Sequence record: PX880099.1
Origin: a phage
Length of the DNA stretch: 64,000 nucleotides
Strand: one strand, 5' to 3'
Shown here: positions 47,462 to 60,236 of the stretch, one piece after another
How positions within the stretch are numbered: position 1 is the stretch's first letter
Layout of the letters: every line of letters starts with the position of its first letter
The notes under the pieces: model-generated
Told to the model about the DNA's origin: nothing
What the model saw: the letters and a program-made list of their open reading frames with translations, nothing else
The model's database searches: none
Made by a program: the position numbers and the translations under genes

Positions 47462-47480
47462 AATGATAATGATTCGCATT
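47462..47480. promoter_or_regulatory. Fur-box-like palindrome
   Basis: TGATAATgATTcgCA versus 7-1-7 consensus TGATAATnATTATCA; flanked by palindromic AAATGC..GCATTT. Confidence 0.3.
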
Positions 47481-47519
47481 TAAGTTTATAAATGAGATTG
47501 ATTCTTATTTAATAAGGTA

Positions 47520-47538
47520 AATGACAATCATTCTCATT
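47520..47538. promoter_or_regulatory. Fur-box-like palindrome
   Basis: TGAcAATcATTcTCA, two mismatches to 7-1-7 consensus. Confidence 0.3.
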
Positions 47539-47798
47539 TAGAGAATGACGCGCAGGGGCGGTGTTTGTCTCGCGCTCCCGTGTCCACTCGCCATGTAATA
47601 AGAATAACAGATCCAGCCAGGAAAGCAAGCGATTATTTTATCTTTACATTTCTTTACAAATATATAGCACCCAGCCTACCGGCGATCAACCTTCCAACCA
47701 GTGCCCCCTGGTATGTTAGCCCCGCCTTTACGCCGTGGGGTGGCGCTTCCTCTTCTGTATGTAAAACAGTATAAGCCCGATCCCTGGGCTTGTCAAGA

Positions 47799-48065
47799 TT
47801 ATTTTTTGTTTTCTTGCCAGGATAGGACACCTAACCAAAAATACATATCGCCCCGCGCCCCTGGTGGTATCTTGCTTTCCCCGCCGCCACTGCAAGCCCA
47901 TAGATAACCATTTGCGAACGTATCAAAATGATCTATCTCTTCCACCTTATGATCGCCCAGGTTGAGAACGGTTTCAACCTTTAAGCCCGTTGCGCTTGCT
48001 ACCTGGTGCACCGTGCCGCCTTGCCAGCCCAATGAGTGCATAAGGTGTAATGTAGTATTTGTCAT
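47799..48065 (-). CDS. hypothetical protein on opposite strand in GC-richer island
   Basis: 88 aa ORF; only - strand gene between two + strand blocks; real C-terminus may be shorter. Confidence 0.4.
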   Translation of the reverse strand: MTNTTLHLMHSLGWQGGTVHQVASATGLKVETVLNLGDHKVEEIDHFDTFANGYLWACSGGGESKIPPGARGDMYFWLGVLSWQENKK

Positions 48066-48173
48066 GATATCGCCCTTTCTTTGTTGTGCGCCCTGGTTGG
48101 CGCGGTAGAAAGATAATAGCCCTTTTCTTTATATATAGCAAGCAAAAAGAAAATAAAAAAGATTGAAAAATGG

Positions 48174-48231
48174 TTGACGTTAACCAGGCGGCGGCGTAGT
48201 ATTCATCTTGTAGGGCGGCAATGGTGCCGCT
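48174..48231 (+). promoter_or_regulatory. promoter plus 5' stem-loop cassette 1
   Basis: TTGACG-17 bp-TAGTAT, then GGCGGCA-atgg-TGCCGCT hairpin at predicted transcript 5' end. Confidence 0.6.
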
Positions 48232-48251
48232 CACTATTTGGAGTTAAGATC

Positions 48252-48449
48252 ATGGCAACATTGCACATTGTGGCGAAAGCTGGACAAATCAACGTAGTGG
48301 TAAACGGTTTTACTGAGTTCAGTCACCCCCAGGATGATCATGAAACGGTTTTATCTTTCATTGATTCCCTGTTAGAAATGGGAGTCATTACAGAAGACCA
48401 GCACGCTACAAAATGCAAGCGCGTTAATCAAATTGTAGGAATAGAATAA
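48252..48449 (+). CDS. hypothetical small protein (cassette gene)
   Basis: Start set at ATG after GGAG; 65 aa. Confidence 0.5.
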   Translation: MATLHIVAKAGQINVVVNGFTEFSHPQDDHETVLSFIDSLLEMGVITEDQHATKCKRVNQIVGIE

Positions 48450-48456
48450 AAAGTAT

Positions 48457-48516
48457 TGACAACAAACAACAACCTGATAAGATGTATCACATAGGGCGGC
48501 GGAATGGTCCACCGCT
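48457..48516 (+). promoter_or_regulatory. promoter plus 5' stem-loop cassette 2
   Basis: TTGACA, -10-like TAAGAT/ATAGAT, GTATCAC, then GGCGGCGGA-atgg-TCCACCGCT hairpin. Confidence 0.6.
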
Positions 48517-48540
48517 CACAACAGAAGAGAGATTATCATC

Positions 48541-48813
48541 ATGGCATCATATAGCGCAACAATGATCGTAGCTGGCACCACTGGTAAACCTATGCGCGGT
48601 GGCGGATCTTTCGCTAATATCAATATTGACGGGCGTTTATCCCTGGACGCAGCGATCACCGTGGCGCGGGAAACATTTAAGAAAGAATGTAAATTCAATA
48701 AACAAGATTATCTCGGTTTTGCTATTGAAAAAACCGCGCGCTTTGTTGATTATAAAAGCCCGAAAATGGTTGACACTACATTAAAAGCGCAAGATGTAGC
48801 GTTTTTGCTTTAA
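48541..48813 (+). CDS. hypothetical small protein (cassette gene)
   Basis: 90 aa; purine-rich SD before ATG. Confidence 0.55.
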   Translation: MASYSATMIVAGTTGKPMRGGGSFANINIDGRLSLDAAITVARETFKKECKFNKQDYLGFAIEKTARFVDYKSPKMVDTTLKAQDVAFLL

Positions 48814-48816
48814 GGC

Positions 48817-48872
48817 TTGACATTAACGAATAATTTGTTAATATGTTACATAAAGCGGGAATAGTTCCCGCT
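48817..48872 (+). promoter_or_regulatory. promoter plus 5' stem-loop cassette 3
   Basis: TTGACA-16 bp-TAATAT then AGCGGGAA-tag-TTCCCGCT hairpin. Confidence 0.55.
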
Positions 48873-48889
48873 ATTTGTAAGGTGGTAGA

Positions 48890-49147
48890 ATGTTTTACAT
48901 CAAATTAAAAGGTCACGTGATCGCGTTCAAAGATAACGCTTTTTACAGATTAGCAAAATATGCGTTAATACATCCCCACTATGTTTATATAAGGGGGCGT
49001 GATGAAATAAATATCTTTGATCAAACAACATGCGAGAACATCGAGATCCGCAAGGTTGGCGTACGTGATTATCGTACATCTTTCTACCCTTGCAAGGATT
49101 CAGCAAGTCTTTTTAAAGTATGCCAATTGTTGAAAAAAGGTGGTTAA
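48890..49147 (+). CDS. hypothetical small protein (cassette gene)
   Basis: 85 aa; SD AAGGTGG before ATG. Confidence 0.55.
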   Translation: MFYIKLKGHVIAFKDNAFYRLAKYALIHPHYVYIRGRDEINIFDQTTCENIEIRKVGVRDYRTSFYPCKDSASLFKVCQLLKKGG

Positions 49148-49148
49148 T

Positions 49149-49706
49149 ATGGGCCGCGAATATGTGATCCAGTCTTGGGTAAAACATGAAGCAGATGATC
49201 CGCGCATCATTCCCGATCATCTTATCGATGAATCCACGGGATATAGTGGTGAGCAAATAGGTAACAGATTAGCACGTAGTAACGGCAACGTAAAAGCGCG
49301 TTATGTGCGCCCTGGCTGGCTGGCAAATGGTAACGCTGATTTATCCAGTGCGGAAGATGCGAGCGACGGCGCGAAAGATAATCCTTTGTACAAAGTTGAT
49401 CCAGCTTTTCGTGTCCTGGATGAATACCCCAGCAAGATAGCGGCGCTCGATCAGGCCCTGGAAAGTAAGCGCATCACCTGGACCGCTTACAACATGGCAA
49501 AAAACGTACTTGATGGTAAATTGATTCAAGCTGAAAGAAAATTAGCCAAAATTGCAGCCATAGCCCAGGAGGAAGACGAGGAGACAACGGAAGAGGAAGA
49601 GTACGAAGAGATCCCGCCGTTGTTGTGTGTTGATGCTTTTCCTGATTATCAGCCGACAGAGGAAGAAAAAAGGATCGCACTAGAAAACTTTGAAAATAGT
49701 CTTTGA
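49149..49706 (+). CDS. hypothetical protein with acidic C-terminal region (second gene of cassette 3 operon)
   Basis: Start set at ATG after SD AAAGGTGG; no promoter between it and the upstream gene. Confidence 0.55.
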   Translation: MGREYVIQSWVKHEADDPRIIPDHLIDESTGYSGEQIGNRLARSNGNVKARYVRPGWLANGNADLSSAEDASDGAKDNPLYKVDPAFRVLDEYPSKIAALDQALESKRITWTAYNMAKNVLDGKLIQAERKLAKIAAIAQEEDEETTEEEEYEEIPPLLCVDAFPDYQPTEEEKRIALENFENSL

Positions 49707-49761
49707 CATATCGCCGCCACTGGCATAATATTTACCACGTAGGGCGGCAATGGTGCCGCTC
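49703..49761 (+). promoter_or_regulatory. promoter plus 5' stem-loop cassette 4
   Basis: TTGACA-17 bp-TAATAT-TTACCAC then GGCGGCA-atgg-TGCCGCT hairpin. Confidence 0.6.
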
Positions 49762-49788
49762 ATAGTGAAATTATGCAAGAGGCTTACA

Positions 49789-49884
49789 ATGATTAATAAA
49801 GAAAATAGCTTGACGGTTGGAACGATTAACGCTATCATTCTAGCCGTTCCATTTTGGGTTGTAGTAGCGGCTATTATTTTCTAA
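49789..49884 (+). CDS. possible 31-aa hydrophobic peptide
   Basis: ATG after AAGAGG; single predicted TM segment; only ORF between cassettes 4 and 5. Confidence 0.3.
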   Translation: MINKENSLTVGTINAIILAVPFWVVVAAIIF

Positions 49885-49892
49885 AAATATTC

Positions 49893-49952
49893 TTGACAAC
49901 GTTTTTTAATCTGATAAGATGTATCACGTAGGGCGGCGGAATACTTCCCCGC
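49893..49952 (+). promoter_or_regulatory. promoter plus 5' stem-loop cassette 5
   Basis: TTGACA-16 bp-TAAGAT-GTATCAC then GGCGGCGGAA-tac-TTCCCCGCC hairpin with one bulge. Confidence 0.6.
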
Positions 49953-49974
49953 CAAAACAAAAAAGGGTAACACA

Positions 49975-50337
49975 ATGAGCAAGCAAATCAATACTATCAT
50001 GTTTAATCTGGTATCTTTCCGCGATGATATGAAAAATTTACCACGTGAAACGGTTGATATTCATGTTTCAGCTTATCGCGCCCTTATTGACATGTTACCG
50101 CTAAAACGTGATCAACATGCCGCTAATATGATGCTTAATGCTATGCTTAAAAAGATGATTCAAACGGATCTTACTCTGGCGTATGAGTATCAAGGGCGCT
50201 TATATGCGACTTACAACAAAGCGGTACCTGGTCTGGGAAGTACCGAAGAGTTGCACGGCTTAAACCTGGATCAAAACACTTGGGATAGTATGCGCCGCGT
50301 TATGGTATGGGCCGAAAGCGGTAAAATTTACGAATAA
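49975..50337 (+). CDS. hypothetical protein (cassette gene)
   Basis: 120 aa; SD AAAGGG before ATG. Confidence 0.55.
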   Translation: MSKQINTIMFNLVSFRDDMKNLPRETVDIHVSAYRALIDMLPLKRDQHAANMMLNAMLKKMIQTDLTLAYEYQGRLYATYNKAVPGLGSTEELHGLNLDQNTWDSMRRVMVWAESGKIYE

Positions 50338-50343
50338 AAACGG

Positions 50344-50401
50344 TTGACACTGTTTAAACTTCTGGTATAGTTTATCACGTAGGGCGGCAATGGTGCCGCC
50401 A
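50344..50401 (+). promoter_or_regulatory. promoter plus 5' stem-loop cassette 6
   Basis: TTGACA-16 bp-TATAGT-TTATCAC then GGCGGCA-atgg-TGCCGCC perfect hairpin. Confidence 0.65.
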
Positions 50402-50420
50402 ACAATAAAAGGTTAACATC

Positions 50421-50600
50421 ATGGCTATCATTGCAAAAACTGAGATTATAGGTTTAGATTCGATCCTCCTGGCTTATGAGGAAACTTTAAAAATGTATGT
50501 AGTGACCTATGGTGATTATGTGCGTGAATACGAATACATTGATCTTGCTTTCGAATGTTACATTCGCCAGGTCAATAAAGCCTATAATGATTATCGTTAA
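50421..50600 (+). CDS. hypothetical small protein (59 aa, below ORF-track cutoff)
   Basis: ATG after AAAAGG; only ORF between cassettes 6 and 7. Confidence 0.45.
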   Translation: MAIIAKTEIIGLDSILLAYEETLKMYVVTYGDYVREYEYIDLAFECYIRQVNKAYNDYR

Positions 50601-50619
50601 AAGTTTTAGTCTTATACTA

Positions 50620-50670
50620 TTGACAATGAGTGATAGTATAAGCATAATAACTTTTATCGGGAATACTTCC
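50620..50670 (+). promoter_or_regulatory. promoter plus short 5' stem-loop cassette 7
   Basis: TTGACA-17 bp-CATAAT then GGGAA-tac-TTCCC hairpin. Confidence 0.5.
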
Positions 50671-50697
50671 CACTAACCAAAAAGAGAGAGTGACACC

Positions 50698-51063
50698 ATG
50701 GCTATTAATATCAATGTTTCCGCTTATGCTACCCTGGCTAACACGGCTAAAATTGAATTATCCAGCATTGAGGCGGTGCATATTAGCGCCCGTCGCTGGT
50801 TTCAACAGTCCTACGGTAACACATATTTTTCTTTAATGGTTGACGTTGAGATCGGCGGTAAACTGATCGAGGTGGTTAACGTTCCGTTTCAATATGGCTA
50901 TGGTGATCATTTTGATACCGTCGCCCTGGAAGAATTTAGCAAGGTTATCAACCTTGAGGGCAAGGAATTTTCACGCGGCGCGTATCTTTCCCGTTTTTGC
51001 CGTGACAATGGGATCACTGTATACAGTCATGCAAGCGATGTAAAACGTAAAAAAGATTTATAA
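50698..51063 (+). CDS. hypothetical protein (cassette gene)
   Basis: 121 aa; SD GAGAGAG before ATG. Confidence 0.55.
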   Translation: MAININVSAYATLANTAKIELSSIEAVHISARRWFQQSYGNTYFSLMVDVEIGGKLIEVVNVPFQYGYGDHFDTVALEEFSKVINLEGKEFSRGAYLSRFCRDNGITVYSHASDVKRKKDL

Positions 51064-51069
51064 AAAGCA

Positions 51070-51129
51070 TTGACAGCACGAATAAAAAGAGTAAACTGTA
51101 TTACATAGAGAGCGGGAATAGTTCCCGCC
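51070..51129 (+). promoter_or_regulatory. promoter plus 5' stem-loop cassette 8
   Basis: TTGACA-16 bp-TAAACT-GTATTAC then GCGGGAA-tag-TTCCCGC hairpin. Confidence 0.6.
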
Positions 51130-51152
51130 TCATTCAAAGAGAGATTATCATC

Positions 51153-51392
51153 ATGGCTATTACTAAAACTTACAACGGTCACAAAAACAAAACTCACTGG
51201 AATGTAAGCCTTTGGATTAATAACGACGAATCATTATATCGGTTGGCGAAAGAATTTATCGCCGCTAATACTAATCGTAATGATGCTGCCCGTGATATGA
51301 TGTTATTCCTGGAACAAACTGGACAAGATAAAACTCCAGACGGTTTCAAGTATAGCACTACAGCGATCCGCGCCGCGATGGTTGGAATGTAA
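51153..51392 (+). CDS. hypothetical small protein (cassette gene)
   Basis: 79 aa; SD AGAGAG before ATG. Confidence 0.55.
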   Translation: MAITKTYNGHKNKTHWNVSLWINNDESLYRLAKEFIAANTNRNDAARDMMLFLEQTGQDKTPDGFKYSTTAIRAAMVGM

Positions 51393-51401
51393 TAAAAACA
51401 G

Positions 51402-51461
51402 TTGACAACGTTTAAAATTAGTGTAAGATGTATCACATAGGGCGGGAAGTGGTTTCCCGCC
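51402..51461 (+). promoter_or_regulatory. promoter plus 5' stem-loop cassette 9
   Basis: TTGACA-16 bp-TAAGAT-GTATCAC then GGCGGGAA-gtggt-TTCCCGCC hairpin. Confidence 0.6.
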
Positions 51462-51483
51462 AACAACAGAGAGATTAAAGATT

Positions 51484-51711
51484 ATGGCTATCAATATTGT
51501 TCGCGTATCCGGCACCGTTGGCACTTCCCAGGTTATTGCAGTTGTAACAAACAAAAAGATTAATGATGTATGTGAGATCTTGAATAAGTGGGCTATTGCT
51601 AATTTTGGGGAATATGCAAGCGTCGAGTACATCGAATCCTACCAGGTGCCAACCATCAGCCTGACCGATCTCAACGTTGATCGCCTGTTATGCCTGGATG
51701 AATTAATCTGA
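51484..51711 (+). CDS. hypothetical small protein (cassette gene)
   Basis: 75 aa; SD GAGAG before ATG. Confidence 0.55.
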   Translation: MAINIVRVSGTVGTSQVIAVVTNKKINDVCEILNKWAIANFGEYASVEYIESYQVPTISLTDLNVDRLLCLDELI

Positions 51712-51720
51712 AAAAGATTG

Positions 51721-51777
51721 TTGACACGGGAAAGAAAAAGAGTAAACTGTATTACGTAGGGCGGCAATAGTGCCGCT
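51721..51777 (+). promoter_or_regulatory. promoter plus 5' stem-loop cassette 10
   Basis: TTGACA-16 bp-TAAACT-GTATTAC then GGCGGCA-atag-TGCCGCT hairpin. Confidence 0.6.
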
Positions 51778-51801
51778 CACAACAGAAGAGAGATTATCAC
51801 G

Positions 51802-52014
51802 ATGGCTAATATCCGCACACTGTTAAAAAATGCAAGTCAAGTTTTATTTTCTGATCACGATCATTTTAATAAAGATATTACAGGCGTGAAGAATATCAAA
51901 GATGTAAAAAGTGTTATGGGTATATATTGCAATGTTAAACGTGTTGGAACGTTCGGTGATAAAGTATTGTACCAATCAGGTGATTACAATTTTACTTTGA
52001 CGATTATTTCATAA
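51802..52014 (+). CDS. hypothetical small protein (cassette gene)
   Basis: 70 aa; SD AGAGAG before ATG. Confidence 0.55.
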   Translation: MANIRTLLKNASQVLFSDHDHFNKDITGVKNIKDVKSVMGIYCNVKRVGTFGDKVLYQSGDYNFTLTIIS

Positions 52015-52019
52015 AACGC

Positions 52020-52081
52020 TTGCAATACTGCAAAAATAAAGTAAACTGTATTACATCAAGGCGGCGGAATGGTCCACCGCC
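52020..52081 (+). promoter_or_regulatory. promoter plus 5' stem-loop cassette 11
   Basis: TTGCAA-16 bp-TAAACT-GTATTAC then GGCGGCGGA-atgg-TCCACCGCC hairpin. Confidence 0.55.
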
Positions 52082-52105
52082 TAACAAAGAGAAGAGGAAA
52101 ATATT

Positions 52106-52273
52106 ATGATCACTTTCGCTACCCGTGAAGCCGCTCGCAACGTTGCACGTAAAGTTAACGCCGCCAACCTGGGCGCTACGCTTAAAGCCCCTGTAAAAGA
52201 TGAATCAGGAAAATGGATCTTCCCTGGTCTACGTCATGCTGACAAGTTAGGTACTTTAAGCCTTAAAAAATAA
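52106..52273 (+). CDS. hypothetical small basic protein (55 aa, below ORF-track cutoff)
   Basis: ATG after SD GAAGAGGAAA; N-terminus MITFA shared with 52526-52747. Confidence 0.45.
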   Translation: MITFATREAARNVARKVNAANLGATLKAPVKDESGKWIFPGLRHADKLGTLSLKK

Positions 52274-52276
52274 TCG

Positions 52277-52314
52277 TTGACTTTTCGTTATAGCGCCTTA
52301 TAATGGGCGCTATA
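52277..52314 (+). promoter_or_regulatory. promoter with palindrome straddling the -10 (variant cassette 12)
   Basis: TTGACT-16 bp-TATAAT with inverted repeat TATAGCGCC..GGCGCTATA enclosing the -10 hexamer. Confidence 0.5.
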
Positions 52315-52350
52315 GAGAAGAGAAACCAGTCACAACAGAGAGAAAATATC

Positions 52351-52512
52351 ATGACCAATAAAGAAAAAGCCATCATTAAAGCACATTATCCACATCTAAC
52401 ATTACGTTTTAAAGCCGATGGATCTGTTATGGCCTCCAGTGGGCGCGGGTATGCTTACGGTTTACTTTACACCGCACAACAAGCGCAAGATCATTTAAAC
52501 GCAGTAAAATAA
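52351..52512 (+). CDS. hypothetical small protein (cassette gene)
   Basis: Start set at ATG after AGAGAGAA (MTNKEK); 53 aa. Confidence 0.45.
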   Translation: MTNKEKAIIKAHYPHLTLRFKADGSVMASSGRGYAYGLLYTAQQAQDHLNAVK

Positions 52513-52525
52513 CAAGGAAACCATT

Positions 52526-52747
52526 ATGATCACTTTCGCTATTGTCGCCGTTGTTGCTGGTCAAGTTTACGTAAATGAGACATTTACTACAGAAGACAAG
52601 GCAGCAGGAGATATAACCGCCGTTTACAATGAGTGCAAGGCAGTAGAAAGGATGTTAGCGCCTTGTATGCTAATGAGTGAACGCCAGGACGGAATAACAG
52701 TATTTACTAACATTGGAACAGGGTACCAAATGGTAGTAACAAAATAA
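52526..52747 (+). CDS. hypothetical small protein (second gene of cassette 12 operon)
   Basis: 73 aa; SD AAGGAAA before ATG; hydrophobic N-terminus. Confidence 0.5.
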   Translation: MITFAIVAVVAGQVYVNETFTTEDKAAGDITAVYNECKAVERMLAPCMLMSERQDGITVFTNIGTGYQMVVTK

Positions 52748-52750
52748 AGC

Positions 52751-52808
52751 TTGACACCGATTTAATTTTTAGTAAACTGTTACAGGTAGGGCGGGAATAG
52801 TTCCCGCT
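52751..52808 (+). promoter_or_regulatory. promoter plus 5' stem-loop cassette 13
   Basis: TTGACA-16 bp-TAAACT then GCGGGAA-tag-TTCCCGC hairpin. Confidence 0.6.
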
Positions 52809-52826
52809 CAAAAAGAGAGAAAGACC

Positions 52827-53180
52827 ATGAAAGCACAAAATGCAATTAAAGAGTACATCCTTGCCGCTATCGATTTTAATGATTACGGTATTACAACCGA
52901 AAAAGAGAAGATCGCGGAATTGATGCGCCGTTTTAATTCCGAGTACTGGTACCCTGATAACCAATCACGTTTTAATTATAGTATTGTTAAAGCACTTGCA
53001 TCATGGTTACAAGGTTTGCCATCAGATATCAATATCGCTTTCGAATATTGGGAAATTGATCGCTTGTTAACATCCTGGGGATACATTAAAGAGAATAGCA
53101 GCGATGATAAAATCCAACGAGAAAGGGAAAATTATTGGCTTTATATTGCAGGCGTGATCCTTGCTTGCTCTTATGAATGA
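52827..53180 (+). CDS. hypothetical protein (cassette gene)
   Basis: 117 aa; SD AGAGAGAAAG before ATG. Confidence 0.55.
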   Translation: MKAQNAIKEYILAAIDFNDYGITTEKEKIAELMRRFNSEYWYPDNQSRFNYSIVKALASWLQGLPSDINIAFEYWEIDRLLTSWGYIKENSSDDKIQRERENYWLYIAGVILACSYE

Positions 53181-53186
53181 TAAACC

Positions 53187-53240
53187 TTGACAATTTTACA
53201 AAACAGTTTAAATTAACAATATAGCGGCAATGGTGCCGCT
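53187..53240 (+). promoter_or_regulatory. promoter plus 5' stem-loop cassette 14
   Basis: TTGACA, weak -10, then AGCGGCA-atgg-TGCCGCT hairpin. Confidence 0.5.
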
Positions 53241-53259
53241 CATATGAAGAGGAAACAAA

Positions 53260-53406
53260 ATGAATACATCTAATCGCGCAGAAAAAATTCAATCTTCCAA
53301 GATCCGCAAAGCCTGGAACGAGGAAGTGATCCGCAAAGGCGACAAGCGTAATAAAACAAAGCGCGGGAAGAGTGACAAATATAATTGGATGGATTTAGAG
53401 GATTAA
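53260..53406 (+). CDS. hypothetical small basic protein (48 aa, below ORF-track cutoff)
   Basis: ATG after SD GAAGAGGAAA; Lys/Arg-rich. Confidence 0.4.
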   Translation: MNTSNRAEKIQSSKIRKAWNEEVIRKGDKRNKTKRGKSDKYNWMDLED

Positions 53407-53413
53407 CATAACA

Positions 53414-53441
53414 AGGGCGCATCAAGCGCCCTTTCTTTTTA
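53414..53441 (+). terminator. rho-independent terminator (module AAGGGCGCAYCAAGCGCCCTTT)
   Basis: AGGGCGC-atcaa-GCGCCCT hairpin followed by TTCTTTTT. Confidence 0.7.
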
Positions 53442-53461
53442 CATGTAGAGGATAAACAAAA

Positions 53462-53647
53462 ATGACTTTAAACGAGCTTAAAACAGCCTACAACGCAACA
53501 TTAAAAATAGCCGTGCGTTACCGTGATGCGTATGGTTTTATCGCGCAGGGCGTGATCCTGGGCTTTTCTGACGATGGTTTGATCTATGTTGATGCACATC
53601 ACAACAAGGTTAAACCTGAAAACGTCATTAGCATAAAATATCTTTAA
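53462..53647 (+). CDS. hypothetical small protein
   Basis: 61 aa; SD GAGGA before ATG; no cassette promoter directly upstream. Confidence 0.5.
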   Translation: MTLNELKTAYNATLKIAVRYRDAYGFIAQGVILGFSDDGLIYVDAHHNKVKPENVISIKYL

Positions 53648-53653: not shown

Positions 53654-53710
53654 TTGACAGCATAACCAAGTATGATAAGATGTATCACATAGGGCGGGAA
53701 TAGTTCCCGA
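53654..53710 (+). promoter_or_regulatory. promoter plus 5' stem-loop cassette 15
   Basis: TTGACA-16 bp-TAAGAT-GTATCAC then GGGCGGGAA-tag-TTCCCGACC hairpin. Confidence 0.6.
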
Positions 53711-54016: not shown

Positions 54017-54301
54017 ATGCGTAAAGCTAACACCGTGCTAATGTTTTCCCTGATTAATAATGCCGCTTACTTGTCCAACATGACGCAGGAGGGTAACACA
54101 TTAACGGCAACATTCACCAATAAGCTTGACCGAGTGATCATAATCTCACTGAAAACAGTTAGTAAAGGCTTTTACTCGTTAGCTTATCATTGTATCACTG
54201 ACACCGACGAGACAAGCCAGGACTATAGCGCCCCTTTCCCTGAATCAATGGCACGGGAGATCATCGCCGCCGTTGTAAATGATGGTTTGTTTACTGCATA
54301 A
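54017..54301 (+). CDS. hypothetical protein (cassette gene)
   Basis: Start set at ATG after SD GAGGA (MRKANTVL); 94 aa. Confidence 0.5.
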   Translation: MRKANTVLMFSLINNAAYLSNMTQEGNTLTATFTNKLDRVIIISLKTVSKGFYSLAYHCITDTDETSQDYSAPFPESMAREIIAAVVNDGLFTA

Positions 54302-54318
54302 AATAATTCAGAAAAGGC

Positions 54319-54378
54319 TTGCAATAATTTTCAGACCGTGTATATTTAATTCATAGGGCGGCGGGAATAGTTTCCTAA
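54319..54378 (+). promoter_or_regulatory. promoter plus degenerate 5' stem-loop cassette 17
   Basis: TTGCAA-16 bp-TATATT then partially decayed GGCGGGAATAGTTTCC element. Confidence 0.4.
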
Positions 54379-54398
54379 GCAAACGAGAGGATTACACG

Positions 54399-54518
54399 AT
54401 GAGCAAGTATACAGTAGAATACACGGTAGAAAATCCGGCAGTATCCGAAGGTAAAAAGATGACATTTGCCATCAGTATAATCGCTTTCGTTATCACTATC
54501 TTATCAATCATCTTATAA
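54399..54518 (+). CDS. possible 39-aa membrane peptide
   Basis: ATG after GAGAGG; hydrophobic C-terminal half. Confidence 0.3.
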   Translation: MSKYTVEYTVENPAVSEGKKMTFAISIIAFVITILSIIL

Positions 54519-54528
54519 GGTGCGTACT

Positions 54529-54690
54529 ATGAAAACAACAGACATTATCAAAGAGATCGCCCTTGCCGCTGACGTTGAGATCGAGGAAGTGATCGCGCTC
54601 AACCTTACAGAAAACGATCTGCGCAACTATGAAGCGGAAAGCGTGAAAGCAAGCGGCGCGGTCCTGGCATATAATCCGGCTAACAAGTAA
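54529..54690 (+). CDS. hypothetical small acidic protein (53 aa, below ORF-track cutoff)
   Basis: ATG after SD AAGGTG. Confidence 0.4.
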   Translation: MKTTDIIKEIALAADVEIEEVIALNLTENDLRNYEAESVKASGAVLAYNPANK

Positions 54691-54699
54691 GGGGATAAC

Positions 54700-54810
54700 A
54701 TGAATCCAAAAGATATGCAAGCATGGAAAGGGTACGACGATCTAAGCGCCTTGCGCAATAAGTCAAGCCGTAACCTTAGACGGTTGGAAGCAAAGAAAAA
54801 GAAAAAATAG
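54700..54810 (+). CDS. possible 36-aa basic peptide
   Basis: ATG after AAGGGG; ends in a Lys run. Confidence 0.3.
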   Translation: MNPKDMQAWKGYDDLSALRNKSSRNLRRLEAKKKKK

Positions 54811-54811
54811 T

Positions 54812-54868
54812 TTGACAAGTCCGCCTAGTCTGATAATATGTATCTTGTAGGGCGGCAATGGTGCCGCT
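54812..54868 (+). promoter_or_regulatory. promoter plus 5' stem-loop cassette 18
   Basis: TTGACA-16 bp-TAATAT then GGCGGCA-atgg-TGCCGCT hairpin. Confidence 0.6.
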
Positions 54869-54888
54869 CACAAGAAGAGAGAAAAATC

Positions 54889-55173
54889 ATGAAAATCACA
54901 AAAAGCCTAACTAATTATGCAGCACGTCGCGGATTATGTTTAACCGTTGAAAACTTAGGGAAAGAAGACTTTTTGTGTTTTTGGGAGCTTGAAAATGATT
55001 GCGAGTGGATGTTTTCTTATTCTATCTGCGAAGATCAAAACGGTTGTTTGTTAACCTGGCGCGGTAATATCTATTTACCGGAAGAAATTAAAGAAGAGTT
55101 ACCAGGTACGATCATGACAGAGAGACAGCTTAAGGAAGTGATCAATTTTGTAGGGCAAAACATTAAAAAATAA
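54889..55173 (+). CDS. hypothetical protein (cassette gene)
   Basis: Start set at ATG after AGAGAGAAAAA (MKITKSL); 94 aa. Confidence 0.5.
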   Translation: MKITKSLTNYAARRGLCLTVENLGKEDFLCFWELENDCEWMFSYSICEDQNGCLLTWRGNIYLPEEIKEELPGTIMTERQLKEVINFVGQNIKK

Positions 55174-55174
55174 T

Positions 55175-55236
55175 TTGACAGTAGGCAAACAACGTAGTAA
55201 AGTTTATTACATAGAGCGGCGGAATGGTCCACCGCT
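55175..55236 (+). promoter_or_regulatory. promoter plus 5' stem-loop cassette 19
   Basis: TTGACA-17 bp-TAAAGT-TTATTAC then AGCGGCGGA-atgg-TCCACCGCT hairpin. Confidence 0.6.
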
Positions 55237-55258
55237 CACAACAGAAGAGAAACAAATC

Positions 55259-55429
55259 ATGATCCCGACTATGTTTTATGTATCGCGCAAAGGTCACAAT
55301 ATTTTTTGGTCTGAAGATTTAAATGAAGCTATGACGTTTGCCCGTGATCGTGTTGCTATCGGTGGCGTTAATATCACCGTGACCGATGAAAACGGCATTG
55401 AATACTATAACGGCGATGATGAAGAGTAA
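55259..55429 (+). CDS. hypothetical small protein (cassette gene)
   Basis: Start set at ATG after AGAGAAACAA (MIPTMFYV); 56 aa. Confidence 0.45.
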   Translation: MIPTMFYVSRKGHNIFWSEDLNEAMTFARDRVAIGGVNITVTDENGIEYYNGDDEE

Positions 55430-55436
55430 TCAACAA

Positions 55437-55455
55437 GGCGGGATTAATTCCGCCT
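55437..55455 (+). other. promoter-less intercistronic stem-loop GGCGGGA-ttaa-TTCCGCC
   Basis: Hairpin right after the stop at 55429 with no -35/-10 upstream and no T-run. Confidence 0.4.
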
Positions 55456-55473
55456 ATATTAAAGGGTAATACA

Positions 55474-55611
55474 ATGAAAACTTTCAACGCAACAGCCTCG
55501 ACAATTGGTTATATTATTACAGTGCAAGCCGTGGATCTGGTAGCAGCAGCAAACAAGATTAAAAAGATGATCCCGCCAGGTAGTGAATTTTCCGTTTGGG
55601 AAGTAAAATAA
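55474..55611 (+). CDS. hypothetical small protein (45 aa, below ORF-track cutoff)
   Basis: ATG after AAAGGG. Confidence 0.35.
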   Translation: MKTFNATASTIGYIITVQAVDLVAAANKIKKMIPPGSEFSVWEVK

Positions 55612-55614
55612 ACC

Positions 55615-55676
55615 TTGACAATAATTTGTTATCTGGTAAAGTGTATTACGTAGGGCGGGGCAATGGTGCAACGCCC
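55615..55676 (+). promoter_or_regulatory. promoter plus 5' stem-loop cassette 20
   Basis: TTGACA-16 bp-TAAAGT-GTATTAC then GGGCGGGGCA-atgg-TGCAACGCCC hairpin with internal mismatch. Confidence 0.55.
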
Positions 55677-55694
55677 ATTAATGAGGGTAGAATC

Positions 55695-55799
55695 ATGTTA
55701 GAGAAAATTTTCACGGTTGTAATAGTGGGCCTGGCGTTATCGGTTGGAGTGGTTGCAACTATGGCTAACATGATCCTATCTTCCCACGGTATCGGTTAA
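55695..55799 (+). CDS. possible 34-aa membrane peptide
   Basis: ATG after SD GAGGGTAG; single hydrophobic helix. Confidence 0.3.
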   Translation: MLEKIFTVVIVGLALSVGVVATMANMILSSHGIG

Positions 55800-55809
55800 G
55801 GTGAAACAA

Positions 55810-55971
55810 ATGATCACGAACAAAACAGGCAAAACGGAATTTTTACGCGGCTTACAAGTTGGTAAGCCTGAGATCTGGCATTGCACGAAGTCCGCGCATA
55901 ATGAAATGAAAGATTTCACCGCTACTTTACAACGTGTTAAAATATCTATTACGCAGAAAAAGCCTTATTAG
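55810..55971 (+). CDS. hypothetical small basic protein (53 aa, below ORF-track cutoff)
   Basis: ATG after AAGGTGAAACAA. Confidence 0.4.
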   Translation: MITNKTGKTEFLRGLQVGKPEIWHCTKSAHNEMKDFTATLQRVKISITQKKPY

Positions 55972-56020
55972 TAGTAGAAAACGAGATCCCGCAAACCATT
56001 ATTATTGTCGAGCGTACAGC

Positions 56021-56407
56021 ATGAAAACAGAAATCATTAACGAAATCATCAACGGCTATAAAGAAGCCTTTATTTTTGCTGAATCAGCAAGGGATCATGA
56101 AGGTAATTTTATAGATGACATGACTGATTATGATTTTTCAGATCAAGCCCATCAACGGATCGCCCAGGATGTAACAGCCTTTATTAATGCTAATCTTGCC
56201 GCTATCTCTGAGGCAATGAGCGACGGCGCAACAGCCAACCAGATCGGGAATGATTTACATTTTACCCGTAACGGTCACGGCGTAGGATTTTGGGATCGCC
56301 CTGAAATATACACCACTAACACGGCGAACCGCCTAACAAATGCAGCTAAGTTTATGCCGAACGTGTCGGCTTACATTGGTGAAGATAATTTGATTTATAT
56401 TGAATAA
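56021..56407 (+). CDS. hypothetical protein
   Basis: Start set at MKTEIINEI; weak SD, possibly translationally coupled; 128 aa. Confidence 0.45.
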   Translation: MKTEIINEIINGYKEAFIFAESARDHEGNFIDDMTDYDFSDQAHQRIAQDVTAFINANLAAISEAMSDGATANQIGNDLHFTRNGHGVGFWDRPEIYTTNTANRLTNAAKFMPNVSAYIGEDNLIYIE

Positions 56408-56413
56408 AAAGTA

Positions 56414-56470
56414 TTGACACAGATCGCCAGTGTGCTAATATTTACCACGTAGGGCGGCAATGGTGCCGCC
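56414..56470 (+). promoter_or_regulatory. promoter plus 5' stem-loop cassette 21
   Basis: TTGACA-16 bp-TAATAT-TTACCAC then GGCGGCA-atgg-TGCCGCC perfect hairpin. Confidence 0.65.
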
Positions 56471-56488
56471 GATAATGAGGAAAATAAA

Positions 56489-56788
56489 ATGGAAACTATC
56501 GCTATTGTTACCGTAGAAAAACTGGTTGTTGGTGATGTGTTCGCGTTAATGGTGCCTAACAGCAGCAAACTGGGCGCTTATGAAGTGATGGACCATAAAA
56601 ATGAATCATTTGGCGACGGTTGCACAATGGCGGTAAAATCCTTAAAGGATGGAATCATCCGCCAGGCTAACTGGCACAAAGGGAATCAAGTCGGTTTAAT
56701 ATCAGCTAATTTCTTGCCAGAAGAGCAAACGTTAGACCAACTATCAGGCGGTAAGACGTTAGCCGAACTACTGGAAACAGCGATCTAA
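56489..56788 (+). CDS. hypothetical protein (cassette gene)
   Basis: 99 aa; SD GAGGAAAATAAA before ATG. Confidence 0.55.
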   Translation: METIAIVTVEKLVVGDVFALMVPNSSKLGAYEVMDHKNESFGDGCTMAVKSLKDGIIRQANWHKGNQVGLISANFLPEEQTLDQLSGGKTLAELLETAI

Positions 56789-56802
56789 TCAACAAAGGGG
56801 CG
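56787..56802 (+). other. promoter-less stem-loop GGGGCG-gcaa-CGCCCC
   Basis: Perfect hairpin overlapping the stop at 56788; near-identical copy at 57079-57094. Confidence 0.45.
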
Positions 56803-56832
56803 GCAACGCCCCACATCAGAAAGGAAAAGATT

Positions 56833-57069
56833 ATGAGTATTGCAACAGTATTAAACGCCGTTAAAACCGCTGAATCATCCGGCTTGCATGTTGAGCTTAT
56901 AGATCAACCAGGTGGCGATCTCCTTGTCCAGGTTTACCCGCCGAAAGTAGGGGATGATTATTATTGGGCTTATTCTGATACGTTCGAACAAGTAGACACG
57001 AAAGCGATCACGGCTTTTATTTTAAAAGCTATTGAAGAAAATAACTTTCATCATAACATCAATCAATAA
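56833..57069 (+). CDS. hypothetical small acidic protein
   Basis: 78 aa; SD AAAGGAAAAGA before ATG. Confidence 0.55.
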   Translation: MSIATVLNAVKTAESSGLHVELIDQPGGDLLVQVYPPKVGDDYYWAYSDTFEQVDTKAITAFILKAIEENNFHHNINQ

Positions 57070-57078
57070 ACCATAAGC

Positions 57079-57094
57079 GGGGCGGTAACGCCCC
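57079..57094 (+). other. promoter-less stem-loop GGGGCG-gtaa-CGCCCC
   Basis: Second copy of the 56787 hairpin, immediately after the stop at 57069. Confidence 0.45.
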
Positions 57095-57123
57095 ATTAAA
57101 CGCAATAGGAAGAGGATAGACGC

Positions 57124-57414
57124 ATGAAAAACATGATCGCAGTAGTTGCCCTAGTTGTTGGTATTAACGCGCCTGTACTGGCTAATGAGTTGTCAGAATC
57201 CATCACGCTAACCGATATCAACGCAATAAACCGGATCGGCGTTAATTATCGCCTATGCCTTGCCGCTAAAACTTTCCAGGACGGCACGACAGAATACCAC
57301 GGATTCGAGGGTATCCGCTGCGGTGAGCTTGCACGCGACCTTAAAGAAGATCCAGACCTTGAGGCCATACCGATGACCGTAAACGGTAAAGCTTACGTAA
57401 ACCGCCAACAATGA
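57124..57414 (+). CDS. secreted small protein (signal peptide)
   Basis: MKNMIAVVALVVGINAPVLA signal peptide; SD AGGAAGAGGA before ATG. Confidence 0.55.
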   Translation: MKNMIAVVALVVGINAPVLANELSESITLTDINAINRIGVNYRLCLAAKTFQDGTTEYHGFEGIRCGELARDLKEDPDLEAIPMTVNGKAYVNRQQ

Positions 57415-57545
57415 GAAAGGTAATCATCACAATGGGGATCGTAGTAGCAACGCTGGCGCTTATCCCCTTCATGGTTGAACATGTGCTGATCAGTGTTGTC
57501 CTTGTAGTCAGTGACCTATTGGAAACGGTTGGCACCTGGTTTTAA
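57411..57545 (+). CDS. possible 44-aa membrane peptide
   Basis: ATGA overlap with upstream stop; two hydrophobic stretches. Confidence 0.3.
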   Translation: MRKVIITMGIVVATLALIPFMVEHVLISVVLVVSDLLETVGTWF

Positions 57546-57550
57546 GATAA

Positions 57551-57580
57551 TAAATAGGGCTTGCAATAGTCCTATTTTTT
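57551..57580 (+). terminator. terminator-like hairpin with T6 run
   Basis: TAGGGC-ttgcaata-GTCCTA imperfect stem followed by TTTTTTG. Confidence 0.4.
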
Positions 57581-57620
57581 GTTATACTTATTGAACGGGC
57601 GGCACCTGGGAGCAGGTGAA
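57561..57620 (+). promoter_or_regulatory. promoter followed by CACCTG-ggag-CAGGTG palindrome (variant element)
   Basis: TTGCAA-16 bp-TATACT; then GGGCGG and a perfect CACCTG/CAGGTG inverted repeat; about 100 nt ORF-free leader follows. Confidence 0.4.
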
Positions 57621-57719
57621 GATAATCACCGGAAGATCCCGCTATATATCGATAGCTAATACCTATCAAACAACAAAACATCAAAGAGATAAACTATCAA
57701 ATCTTTACAATCCTACCTA

Positions 57720-57778
57720 TTGACACCGGATCACGCTTACATTATTATTTATCACGTAGGGCGGGAATGTTTCCCGCC
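57720..57778 (+). promoter_or_regulatory. promoter plus 5' stem-loop cassette 22
   Basis: TTGACA, AT-rich -10 region, TTATCAC, then GGCGGGAA-tgt-TTCCCGCC perfect hairpin. Confidence 0.6.
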
Positions 57779-57796
57779 TGATTTAGGAGTCATATC

Positions 57797-58030
57797 ATGA
57801 TCGAACAAATTAAAAGCACTAAACCAAATGTTAACGGTAATGTTTCTCACTTTATCGGGGATAATGAAAGAGGTACACCGTACGCCGCCGTAACCGTTCA
57901 ACCGAACGGGGATTATTGGTTTACCGTGTACGGATCTTACTCTTTTGGACGTTCGGCACATGATAAGATCTTGCAAGTGGTTAAGCCTACTGGGAAGAAT
58001 ATCACAGCAGAAAAATTTTATAAAAAATAG
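57797..58030 (+). CDS. hypothetical small protein (cassette gene)
   Basis: 77 aa; SD AGGAG before ATG. Confidence 0.55.
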   Translation: MIEQIKSTKPNVNGNVSHFIGDNERGTPYAAVTVQPNGDYWFTVYGSYSFGRSAHDKILQVVKPTGKNITAEKFYKK

Positions 58031-58032
58031 CT

Positions 58033-58091
58033 TGCTTTATATACCCTGTTAACTTATAGTTATTGCGTAGGGCGAGCAATACAGCAAGCCC
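58033..58091 (+). promoter_or_regulatory. promoter plus degenerate 5' stem-loop cassette 23
   Basis: TTGCTT-16 bp-TTATAG/TATAGT then GGGCGAGCAATACAGCAAGCCC imperfect inverted repeat. Confidence 0.45.
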
Positions 58092-58108
58092 ACAAAGAGG
58101 AAAATAAA

Positions 58109-58477
58109 ATGAGCAAATCAGCAATTAAAGCACTTGAAAAAGCACAAGAAGTGATCGCAACGTCAACCACTGGCGCAAAGGTTAATCTCGTTTGTTATCT
58201 GACAGATGAAACTATCCGTAAAAATTGGCGTAATGCTGATTTACTGGCTTGCTTATTGATTAATAGTGTCGCTAATGCTTTCCAGTGTGAAACAGCCGAG
58301 AGCCTGGAGGAAAACTTGTTTGATAATATGGATCAAGCCATTGAAACCTATATACAATCAAACCTGGATAGCTGGAACAGTAAAACATGGCCCGACAATT
58401 TACGCGATACAACTGATCAACTGATCCGCCTTGCCCTGATGGTTGAACGCGATAACGTTTACAACAGCACAAAGTAA
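58109..58477 (+). CDS. hypothetical protein (cassette gene)
   Basis: 122 aa; SD AAGAGGAAAA before ATG. Confidence 0.55.
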   Translation: MSKSAIKALEKAQEVIATSTTGAKVNLVCYLTDETIRKNWRNADLLACLLINSVANAFQCETAESLEENLFDNMDQAIETYIQSNLDSWNSKTWPDNLRDTTDQLIRLALMVERDNVYNSTK

Positions 58478-58486
58478 GATTATACA

Positions 58487-58510
58487 AGGGCGCACTAAGC
58501 GCCCTTTAAC
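58487..58510 (+). terminator. terminator-like hairpin (same module as 53414 and 59050)
   Basis: AGGGCGC-actaa-GCGCCCT followed by TTTAAC, weak T tail. Confidence 0.45.
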
Positions 58511-58536
58511 GTAAAGAAATGTAAATAATGCGCTAT

Positions 58537-58571
58537 CCCCTATTGACAGGGGATCGGCGTTATATTATATT
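58537..58571 (+). promoter_or_regulatory. promoter with palindrome around the -35 (variant cassette 24, no 5' hairpin)
   Basis: TCCCCT-aTTGACA-GGGGA inverted repeat enclosing -35 TTGACA; 17 bp; TATATT. Confidence 0.5.
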
Positions 58572-58616
58572 TAACTTACTGGCAGCAAACAACGAAACGA
58601 AACAAAGGACAACATC

Positions 58617-59036
58617 ATGAACATTAAATCAAATAATCCAGCTTACTCCTTCGATAACGCTTTTTGTCACGGTAGCGCCGCCAAAGGCTTCGAAATCGAT
58701 GGTAAATTGGTTATCGTGAACGTTGACGGGGAAGAGGTTGCAGTGTATCCGGTAAACGATGTTAAAAGCCGTTTACAATGCCGCATGGATGTTACCGCAT
58801 ATCAGCTTGATCCGGTCCGTGTAGTTGCCTTGGTGTTAGAGGAAGAGATCAAAGCAATGCATCACAGTAATAAGTTTATTGGTGACGCGCAGGATAATAT
58901 GAACGTTTGCCGCCATAAAGTTAATGAAGCATTGAAAGAATGCGGTTTTAAGGATCTGATGATTAAACGTGATGAAAAATTCCGCTTTCGTAATGACCTG
59001 GCAAACCGGATCTACTCAATCTATGAAGCGTTATAA
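58617..59036 (+). CDS. hypothetical protein (last gene of array)
   Basis: 139 aa; SD AAAGGA before ATG; followed by strong terminator. Confidence 0.55.
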   Translation: MNIKSNNPAYSFDNAFCHGSAAKGFEIDGKLVIVNVDGEEVAVYPVNDVKSRLQCRMDVTAYQLDPVRVVALVLEEEIKAMHHSNKFIGDAQDNMNVCRHKVNEALKECGFKDLMIKRDEKFRFRNDLANRIYSIYEAL

Positions 59037-59049
59037 TTGACAACAAAAC

Positions 59050-59078
59050 AAGGGCGCACCAAGCGCCCTTTCTTTTTG
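59050..59078 (+). terminator. rho-independent terminator (module AAGGGCGCAYCAAGCGCCCTTT)
   Basis: AGGGCGC-accaa-GCGCCCT hairpin followed by TTCTTTTT. Confidence 0.75.
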
Positions 59079-60039
59079 CCCGAACAATATTGATAGCTTT
59101 CGCCTATGAAAAACCGACACAGAACAAAACTGAATAAATCGCGGTATCGAGCTAATCAACCAGCAAACGAATAACCATACCTCCCAGGGTTACAGGCTGT
59201 TAGAGAGCCATTTAGAGCGGTTAAAATCGATCAACAACCAACAACAAACCATCAAAAACACCCTTTTACCTCCTTTCTAGTGCAATGATAACCATTATCA
59301 TCTACCCATGATTATCTATGCAATATAAGCGCATAATTATAATGTTGATAATAGTTCGCAACAACTAACCAACAAACAACATAAAACAATAAGCAAACTA
59401 ATCATAATCAAAGGAATAATAGCAAGATGATTGATAACGACAAACAATCAAACCATGATGAATACTAAGCAAGATAACGATAACACGACAAAACAACCAA
59501 CTAACGAACAATAACAAACGAAACCATTAAAATAATAACTATTAGCAAAATAGTGCATGAATGAAATCATTACAAAACGAATCATTCATAGAGTCATCAT
59601 TAGCACGCTATGCCGGACACATAGCGAGCTAATAATAAGCCAACTACACCCCAACAATCATAACCATCGGTGATGGTTATTTCTTGTTACTGCGTAGCTT
59701 GCAATAATTGCAAGCGTAATGACGCTTACACTTATTGCGCTGGCTTATTATTAGCATTATATGTAATTACCAAGATCATAACATTAGCGCAATAACAATA
59801 ATCATTGTGGTAATTACGTAAGGAAACAATTAGCATGGCAATAATTATGGGGGCAATGGGAGGATGATTATCATCATTCCGATACATTGCACACTATGCA
59901 CATAATAGAATAAAAAGCAATAATTTTGGGGGCGAAATGTTACCGCCACAGGCGGGAATGTTGAGCAAGTTCTCTTAAACGTAAATAAAATCAGAATAAT
60001 CTTGATTTATTTTAGTTTTTATGTTAATAAACGTTTAAA

Positions 60040-60054
60040 TAATAATCATTCTCA
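60040..60054. promoter_or_regulatory. Fur-box-like palindrome
   Basis: TaATAATcATTcTCA, two mismatches to 7-1-7 consensus TGATAATnATTATCA. Confidence 0.3.
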
Positions 60055-60215
60055 TATAAATAATAGTCTGCTTGTCATGAGCGGGATTAGTTGACAATGT
60101 TCCGTCATATGATGAGGTTGCCAAGCCATTGATAAATAAGTGTTTGTGTGATTTATAATCAGGTGGCCCACCTTGTCGCTATGTTGGCATGAGCCTTGCA
60201 TAAGTCATTGAATAC

Positions 60216-60236
60216 GAATGATAATTATTCTCATTC
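60216..60236. promoter_or_regulatory. Fur-box-like palindrome (best match in window)
   Basis: TGATAATtATTcTCA, one mismatch to consensus; embedded in larger palindrome CGAATGA..TCATTCG. Confidence 0.35.

Follow-up and report, generated by a model that had tools for sequence, protein, structure and literature searches.

Results

Non-coding regions of the phage genome carry palindromes of the Fur type

We analysed a 64,000-nucleotide stretch of phage DNA (sequence record PX880099.1, hereafter the window), in which the non-coding regions on either side of an array of small genes contain palindromes resembling the binding site of the host iron regulator Fur. Megablast placed the window in Phapecoctavirus (phAPEC8-like virulent Escherichia coli myoviruses of about 150 kb, subfamily Stephanstirmvirinae), and vB_EcoM-Ro121lw was 99.9% identical to it. 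Judged from annotated relatives, the array at about 48.25-59.04 kb consists of small plus-strand genes with no assigned function, and its flanks at 46.99-48.25 kb and 59.04-60.58 kb are non-coding. Neither transfer RNA nor transfer-messenger RNA genes were found in the window. The original prediction, made from the sequence alone, had called the gene group a cassette array and named four Fur-box-like sites beside it (47462-47480, 47520-47538, 60040-60054 and 60216-60236). All four were located at these positions. The core that they had been said to share, ATTCTCAT, was present in three of them, and the site at 47462 has ATTCGCAT instead. The stretch at 47.46-47.54 kb already carries a repeat_region annotation, uncommented, in the tuntematon record.

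For scoring, a palindromic matrix of 19 bp was derived de novo from 13 Fur-regulated promoter regions of E. coli K-12 (fepA-fes, fepD-entS, fepB-entC, fhuA, fur, tonB, cirA, exbB, ryhB, sodA, fecA, fhuF and fiu). This training set covers most of the footprinted or gel-shifted list of Chen et al. 2007 (PMC2189734), with the addition of fiu, which is not named there. Palindromic expectation-maximisation was run from every possible seed, without a preset consensus. The procedure converged on AATGATAATCATTATCATT, which is the classical Fur box, and the training operators scored 12-24 bits with the exception of fecA (6.9 bits).

With this host matrix, the best sites of the window were, in descending order, those at 60217, 47520, 47462, 60038 and 59284, and their scores of 17.3-20.9 bits fell within the range of the host operators (Table 1). 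Five sites reached 16 bits and four reached 18 bits, against 0.11 and 0.03 expected from 200 dinucleotide shuffles of the 64 kb, and the phage sites exceeded 16.8 bits, the 95th percentile of the shuffle maxima. Eleven of the 12 top-scoring sites in the window fall in the two intergenic regions. When composition-matched shuffling was confined to the AT-rich intergenic regions, including the 26%-GC segment 47180-47560 and the 329-bp repeat described below, the observed counts were reached in 0 of 2000 shuffles. The remaining 86 kb of the genome, taken from a near-identical record, contained nothing above 12.5 bits, and the number of Fur-type sites came to about 11-13 per genome. Compared with the Fur-box consensus, given as the 19-bp GATAATGATAATCATTATC or as the 7-1-7 form TGATAATnATTATCA, one or two mismatches to the 7-1-7 form were counted at 47464, 47522, 59286, 60040 and 60219. 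Sites beyond the four first named were found at 47433, 47491 and 59284, at 47456 and 60211 as partners at an offset of 6 bp, and, with weaker scores, at 59430 and 59531. The overlapping pairs 47456/47462 and 60211/60217, with the same arrangement in relatives and in T5, show the 6-bp (hexamer) offset that is typical of footprinted Fur clusters (Chen et al. 2007, PMC2189734).

The original prediction had allowed that so AT-rich a motif might occur by chance. Because the shuffles fail to reach the observed counts and the sites are conserved in relatives, a chance origin is excluded. In the reverse direction, a matrix built from 61 phage sites was run against 58 kb of E. coli DNA and found only known Fur operators, with ryhB on top; all 17 of its matches at 9 bits or above fell in the 2.8 kb that consist of Fur-regulated promoter regions, although a degree of circularity enters here, the phage sites having been picked with the host matrix.

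A phased array stands beside a conserved promoter module

The left group is an array of four palindromes with an exact period of 29 bp (47433, 47462, 47491 and 47520). Comparison of the 29-bp units shows conservation of the 21-bp palindrome AAATGAnAATnATTCTCATTT but not of the 8-bp spacer; selection is therefore at work on the palindromes and their spacing. Beyond the array no conserved open reading frame was found; a small minus-strand frame like the one annotated in JohannJBalmer was sought, and the AT-rich DNA there yielded only unconserved frames with TTG starts.

On its other side the array is joined by a GC-rich non-coding block with two promoter-like sites of the sigma70 type, P1 and P2, all directed leftward (Table 1). 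The block shows indels of lengths not divisible by three and includes an invariant tandem, GTAAA-N5-GTAAA (the reverse complement of 47641-47658), which resembles the consensus of CpxR and other OmpR-family regulators. The P1 hexamers and their 17-nt spacing are kept in all relatives; the spacer sequence diverges, and it doubles as the terminator hairpin of the upstream minus-strand gene for an 88-aa protein. At P2, the -35 and -10 elements and a spacing of 16-17 nt are kept in 19 distinct relatives, again with a variable spacer sequence. The predicted P2 start at about 47594 lies 56 nt upstream of palindrome 4, and P1 and P2 together stand 56-240 nt upstream of the array.

Conservation of this segment reaches far beyond the genus. 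In a distant-mode blastn search, 47461-47806 of the window was about 70% identical to Vequintavirinae phages, which infect Klebsiella, Cronobacter, Pectobacterium, Proteus and Salmonella. The module was aligned among eight phages and then among 20 distinct sequences. IMG/VR was scanned with an invariant 15-mer of the block, and filtering with an nhmmer profile left 17 additional contigs. Without exception, the full-length copies of the block in these 17 contigs and in 8 reference phages have a box exactly at -21, counted from the block edge; boxes at -50 and -79 accompany it in most copies. The invariance of the -21 box indicates that the array and the block form one conserved module. The module (47541-47796, minus strand) is common to Stephanstirmvirinae and Vequintavirinae and occurs also in the sequences L014, L015, L017 and L020-L023 and at the 17 IMG/VR loci. 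Searches of Rfam gave no match in 46-61 kb at E values up to 1, and for 47420-47820 at E values up to 10 only sub-threshold noise. The module may be a novel non-coding RNA or the portion of a replication origin that is transcribed.

Fur-type sites lie in the terminal repeat

The right group was related to the ends of the virion DNA by way of phage Schickermooser. Korf et al. 2019 (PMC6563267) described a 328-bp terminal repeat in this phAPEC8-like phage. Its record, which is 96% identical, has an exact 329-bp repeat at both ends that maps to 59964-60292 of the window, and two further records begin no more than 9 bases from 60292. The palindrome at 60038 and the composite site 60211/60217 lie within this repeat and therefore at both ends of the virion DNA. 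The 60038 site is identical to the E. coli ryhB operator at 18 of 19 positions. The box at 59284, outside the repeat, is conserved in phiWec181 and in Justusliebigvirus muut. In the alignment with these two phages the boxes and both repeat borders are retained while the flanks diverge; for muut, the box columns are 73% identical and the other columns 57%. The palindromes had been proposed to bracket the cassette array, a description that does not fit these positions: the right pair belongs to the 329-bp terminal repeat, and the left array to a separate conserved non-coding module. We also considered the 11-kb array of small genes as a long terminal repeat of the T5 type and ruled it out, the actual repeat being 329 bp.

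The repeat borders (59955-59972 and 60283-60297) fall within motifs that are conserved among four phages from two genera, ATGTTGAGC on the left and TCGCGTTA|AGCA on the right. These motifs are candidate cutting or recognition sites of the terminase. Between 59100 and 59650, around the box at 59284, the non-coding DNA is A/C-rich with a strong strand bias (AT skew +0.25) and repeated CTAAC/AACAA motifs. It is followed by hairpins that are invariant even in muut, at 59596-59636 (TTAGCACGCTATG..CATAGCGAGCTAA), 59660-59680 (ATAACCATCGGTGATGGTTAT) and 59698-59716 (GCTTGCAATAATTGCAAGC). Because the A/C-rich stretch directly precedes the terminal repeat, it could be a packaging signal or a non-coding RNA.

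Table 1 Fur-type sites and associated elements in the window and in other viral sequences. Scores are those of the host matrix.
Feature	Position	Strand	Sequence	Score (bits)	Remarks
AT-rich region	47209-47418				About 26% G+C; two 72-nt direct repeats and shorter ones; just past the array in the direction of P1/P2 transcription
Fur-type palindrome 1	47433-47451		AATGAGAAGAGTTCTCATA	12.5
Composite Fur-type site 2	47456-47480			13.4 (47456), 19.6 (47462)	Two 19-mers at a 6-bp offset
Fur-type site of composite 2	47462-47480		AATGATAATGATTCGCATT	19.6
Fur-type palindrome 3	47491-47509		AATGAGATTGATTCTTATT	13.0
Fur-type palindrome 4	47520-47538		AATGACAATCATTCTCATT	19.9	Position -21 from the conserved block in all relatives examined
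Conserved GC-rich non-coding block	47541-47765	minus			About 220 nt; direction of transcription leftward, toward the Fur-type array
Promoter-like site P2	47601-47628	minus	TTGCTT, 16 nt, TATTCT		-35, spacer, -10; directly after the GTAAA tandem
Promoter-like site P1	47768-47796	minus	TTGACA, 17 nt, TATACT		11 of 12 matches
Fur-type palindrome before the terminal repeat	59284-59302		AATGATAACCATTATCATC	17.3	7-1-7 with one mismatch; terminal repeat begins about 680 bp to the right
Short direct terminal repeat	59964-60292				329 bp; physical ends of the virion DNA, deduced from the Schickermooser record
Fur-type palindrome in the terminal repeat	60038-60056		AATAATAATCATTCTCATA	18.5	15-mer at 60040-60054; starts 74 bp from the left end
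Composite Fur-type site in the terminal repeat	60211-60235			13.1 (60211), 20.9 (60217)	6-bp offset
Fur-type site of the right composite	60217-60235		AATGATAATTATTCTCATT	20.9	One mismatch to 7-1-7; distance to the left end 253 bp, to the right end 57 bp
Fur-type boxes of a T5-like injection stop region	L016 (chee24), 1541-2062
Fur-type array, unrelated contig	L052, 5780-5906
Fur-type array, unrelated contig	L091, 1976-2113
Fur-type array, unrelated contig	L123, 11421-11669
Fur-type array, unrelated contig	L132, 5043-5228
Fur-type array, unrelated contig	L080, 5910-6141

T5-like phages and uncultured viruses have similar clusters

The array at 47.4 kb also matched T5-like phages in blastn (83-87% identity), at the inner end of their left terminal repeat. 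In T5 itself (NC_005859, L028) the host matrix picked out 9552 with 17.5 bits, 9656 with 23.3 bits and 9691/9697 with 15.3 and 19.7 bits; a partner at an offset of 6 bp accompanies each. All of them (9552-9715) lie within the annotated injection stop signal, 9140-10149, around the calculated shear point of first-step transfer at 9618. Davison, who compared 25 T5-like phages, listed the elements of this region as DRC repeats and palindromes palE to palJ, proposed DnaA boxes as the stop signal and called the function of the other repeats "impossible to guess", with Fur unmentioned. Results of our scan showed that the DRC repeats and palE to palJ score as strong Fur boxes, up to 23.3 bits. Clusters of three to five sites are present in all 11 IMG/VR contigs that were taken as T5-like from their size and DnaA boxes. 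T5 also has a perfect 7-1-7 match, TGATAATCATTATCA, within dmp (233-247), some 230 bp in from the left end.

The T5 cluster and the right-hand cluster described here both lie in non-coding DNA of a terminal repeat. In T5 the repeat is 10 kb long, with the cluster about 9.6 kb from its end and beside paired DnaA boxes and DRD repeats, whereas the repeat here measures 329 bp and neither box region of the window has DnaA boxes as in T5. Of the features of a T5-type injection stop, the window has only the Fur-type palindromes. No protein is common to this genome and the first 12 kb of T5, the sole match being an artefact of translating across the boxes.

IMG/VR was further scanned for the 21-mer AAATGAKAATNATTMTCATTT, which matched at least 120 contigs; by our estimate few would be expected by chance. 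Among the matches listed, 19 of 120 contigs had three or more sites within 300 bp, and some unrelated contigs had arrays with a period of 28-36 bp. Fur-box arrays may be widespread in phages. Unrelated uncultured viral contigs carry four to six non-coding palindromes of the Fur type, often 28-36 bp apart (Table 1), and these arrays adjoin G-tract hairpins and short repeats, such as two copies of ATATGCCCGCATA and three of TGTGACAA. In an incomplete search of the literature, no paper turned up that connects Fur boxes with T5 or the genomes of virulent phages, and the papers on the injection stop region that it covered make no mention of Fur. The sole phage Fur box that this search returned was that of sitABCD on lambdoid prophages (PMC6969025), likewise a host Fur site on phage DNA.

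Discussion

Which protein binds the palindromes

As far as sequence can tell, the identification of the palindromes as Fur boxes has held, their scores having clearly passed the comparison with shuffled DNA that was proposed with the original prediction. We favour, at slightly better than even confidence, the reading that they are sites for host Fur-Fe2+ with a cis-regulatory or architectural role, placed at control regions that are non-coding and not at the promoters of protein-coding genes. The boxes are confined to three non-coding places, namely the terminal repeat, a position about 680 bp before it (one or two boxes) and the 29-bp array by P1 and P2. They are kept in phages of six host genera (Escherichia, Klebsiella, Cronobacter, Pectobacterium, Proteus and Salmonella) while their flanks diverge, which indicates a factor common to these hosts. 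The unrelated T5-like phages have them as well, which also speaks for Fur. E. coli operators such as those of ryhB, fhuA, exbB, sodA, fepB-entC and iucA have the same 19-bp palindrome, the same range of scores and the same composites at a 6-bp offset as the phage sites.

Several observations weigh against this assignment. G occupies position 6 of the half-site (TGAGAAT) in 53% of phage half-sites against 12% of host half-sites, A at position 2 is commoner in the phage than in the host, and the resulting phage consensus is AATGAGAATCATTCTCATT; such differences could point to a different protein. The centre-to-centre spacing of 29 bp differs from the 3 or 6 bp usual for Fur. Host operators overlap the -35 or -10 element of the repressed gene and favour TGATAAT, whereas the phage sites favour TGAGAAT and lie in a 29-bp phased array or in a terminal repeat, and no overlap between a box and a promoter conserved in relatives was found. 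Promoter-like sites do occur near boxes (47407-47435, plus strand; 60252-60224, minus strand), but they are unconserved in phAPEC8, phiWec181 and muut. Classical promoter occlusion by Fur is therefore unsupported here, and so is the iron control of flanking genes that the original prediction had envisaged, as no relative-conserved promoter of a flanking protein gene overlaps any box. The structure of the block as RNA gains little from alignment, with an RNAalifold covariation term of -0.79 kcal/mol and one clear compensatory AU/GC pair. The terminal repeat was deduced through a 96%-identical relative and not from the ends of this genome.

A rival explanation is another protein of Fur-like specificity, such as a phage-encoded dimeric regulator, terminase or initiator or another host factor, with the resemblance to Fur boxes incidental. 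The systematic departure of the phage consensus from the host consensus at two positions speaks for it, as does the regular 29-bp phasing, a pattern that operators or iterons of a dedicated protein typically show. In several relatives, moreover, the array is adjoined by a small conserved minus-strand gene (47799-48065) whose product has an N-terminus that reads as helix-turn-helix-like. This neighbouring 88-aa protein was examined as a binder of the array and rejected, having no match to a DNA-binding fold and no co-occurrence with the arrays. Among host regulators, the consensus sequences of Zur, ArgR and KdgR fit the sites less well than that of Fur, in a comparison made by consensus. A different binder is, in our judgement, possible but less likely than Fur.

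A pure Fur sink, raised already by the original prediction, is improbable. Here the sites would titrate Fur as the genomes multiply and thereby derepress host iron uptake for the phage ribonucleotide reductase, and their position would be irrelevant. The Fur titration assay exploits the derepression of the regulon by multicopy Fur boxes, and some 5,000-10,000 molecules of Fur are present in E. coli. Given this copy number, a few hundred genomes with about 11-13 sites each could matter, and the phage encodes NrdAB, an iron-dependent class Ia ribonucleotide reductase. The idea is therefore quantitatively possible. It gives no need, however, for a box at exactly -21 in all 25 genomes, for 29-bp phasing or for placement in the terminal repeat, and it leaves unexplained why position and phasing are fixed across two subfamilies. 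T5 has the same boxes and yet destroys host DNA early in infection; a sink would be pointless there, as derepressed host genes would achieve nothing once the host DNA is degraded.

Chance AT-rich matches or inert relics of tandem duplication might be suggested by an AT-rich motif in AT-rich non-coding DNA and by an array that is formally a 29-bp tandem repeat, but the shuffling results, the conservation of the palindrome alone within the 29-bp units and the retention of the sites across two subfamilies and six host genera leave this explanation next to no probability.

Comparison with known systems and a possible mechanism

Fur boxes are textbook operators at the promoters of iron genes; phage-borne examples are known only from temperate phages, where they serve cargo genes. 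At the stx1 promoter, for example, a Fur box on a temperate phage controls a cargo gene. Such temperate-phage boxes are single operators at promoters of iron or toxin cargo, in contrast to the clusters described here, which lie in control regions of a virulent phage with no iron gene near. A further likeness is offered by host factors that act at phage control regions, such as IHF at lambda cosB, and by the origins of T7 and of T4 (oriF/oriG), which combine a promoter with an AT-rich element. In these systems a host DNA-binding protein or RNA polymerase works in cis at a non-coding control region, as host Fur would here. The internal module, with its putative promoters that fire into AT-rich repeats, is similar in layout to the T7 and T4 origins. 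We know of no description of Fur in a phage origin or packaging role.

If the palindromes are Fur sites, Fur dimers would occupy them in an iron-replete host, and the phased array would become a Fur-coated stretch of about 110 bp. This complex might act as an iron-dependent roadblock or as an architectural clamp, which at the internal module would control the extent of transcription from P1 and P2 into the AT-rich repeats. Bound at the termini, Fur would label the outermost few hundred base pairs of the DNA for steps such as entry, end protection, replication start or packaging; any titration of Fur by the replicated genomes would be incidental. The order of promoters, G-rich leader and AT-rich element resembles transcription-activated origins (the T7 primary origin and T4 oriF/oriG), and by this analogy an iron-gated origin is a reasonable guess for the internal module. 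The alternative is a non-coding RNA gene with a Fur-dependent 3' boundary; the sole terminator candidate for an RNA of the block is a weak hairpin that uses a Fur half-site. What Fur occupancy would bring about downstream is the weakest step of the proposal.

A broader proposition, speculative enough that we would expect it to fail rather than hold, is that virulent enterobacterial phages (phAPEC8/rV5-like myoviruses and T5-like siphoviruses) use host Fur as a cis-acting iron sensor at their DNA ends and at an origin-like module. The injection-stop palindromes of T5 would then be Fur boxes, and DNA entry, replication start or both would be iron-gated. Should Fur bind, the phased arrays in a virulent phage, the sites in a terminal repeat and the site locked to a promoter module in two subfamilies would all be new. 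Lytic phages would have a way to read the iron status of the host, and in a large group of phages used in therapy a non-coding module would be identified that is conserved and may be an origin or an RNA gene. The link to T5 makes a question on the injection-stop repeats that is more than 50 years old approachable by experiment, through Fur or iron dependence and through mutation of the boxes.

Additional observations near the two regions

The last gene before the left non-coding region, on the plus strand at 46448-46990, encodes a NADAR (YbiA-like) domain (Pfam E = 1.7e-34) and is annotated in JohannJBalmer as a putative N-glycosidase.

Within the small-gene array, the motif TGATAAGATGTATCA recurs between genes at 48475-48489, 49912-49926, 53673-53687 and 54831-54845. 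Its matches with three mismatches at 48475, 49912 and 53673 were considered as Fur boxes and ruled out, since they score below 7.2 bits, the value of the fortieth-best site. Because phAPEC8 has an annotated putative host-dependent promoter at the counterpart of 48475, the motifs are probably early promoters and not Fur boxes.

To the right of the terminal repeat and before the first left-end gene (60577), repeats resembling ATGATTGCCATGAAA were found at 60310-60372 and 60536-60550, with promoter-like sites near them at 60362-60391 and 60495-60523. These repeats may be operators of another regulator.

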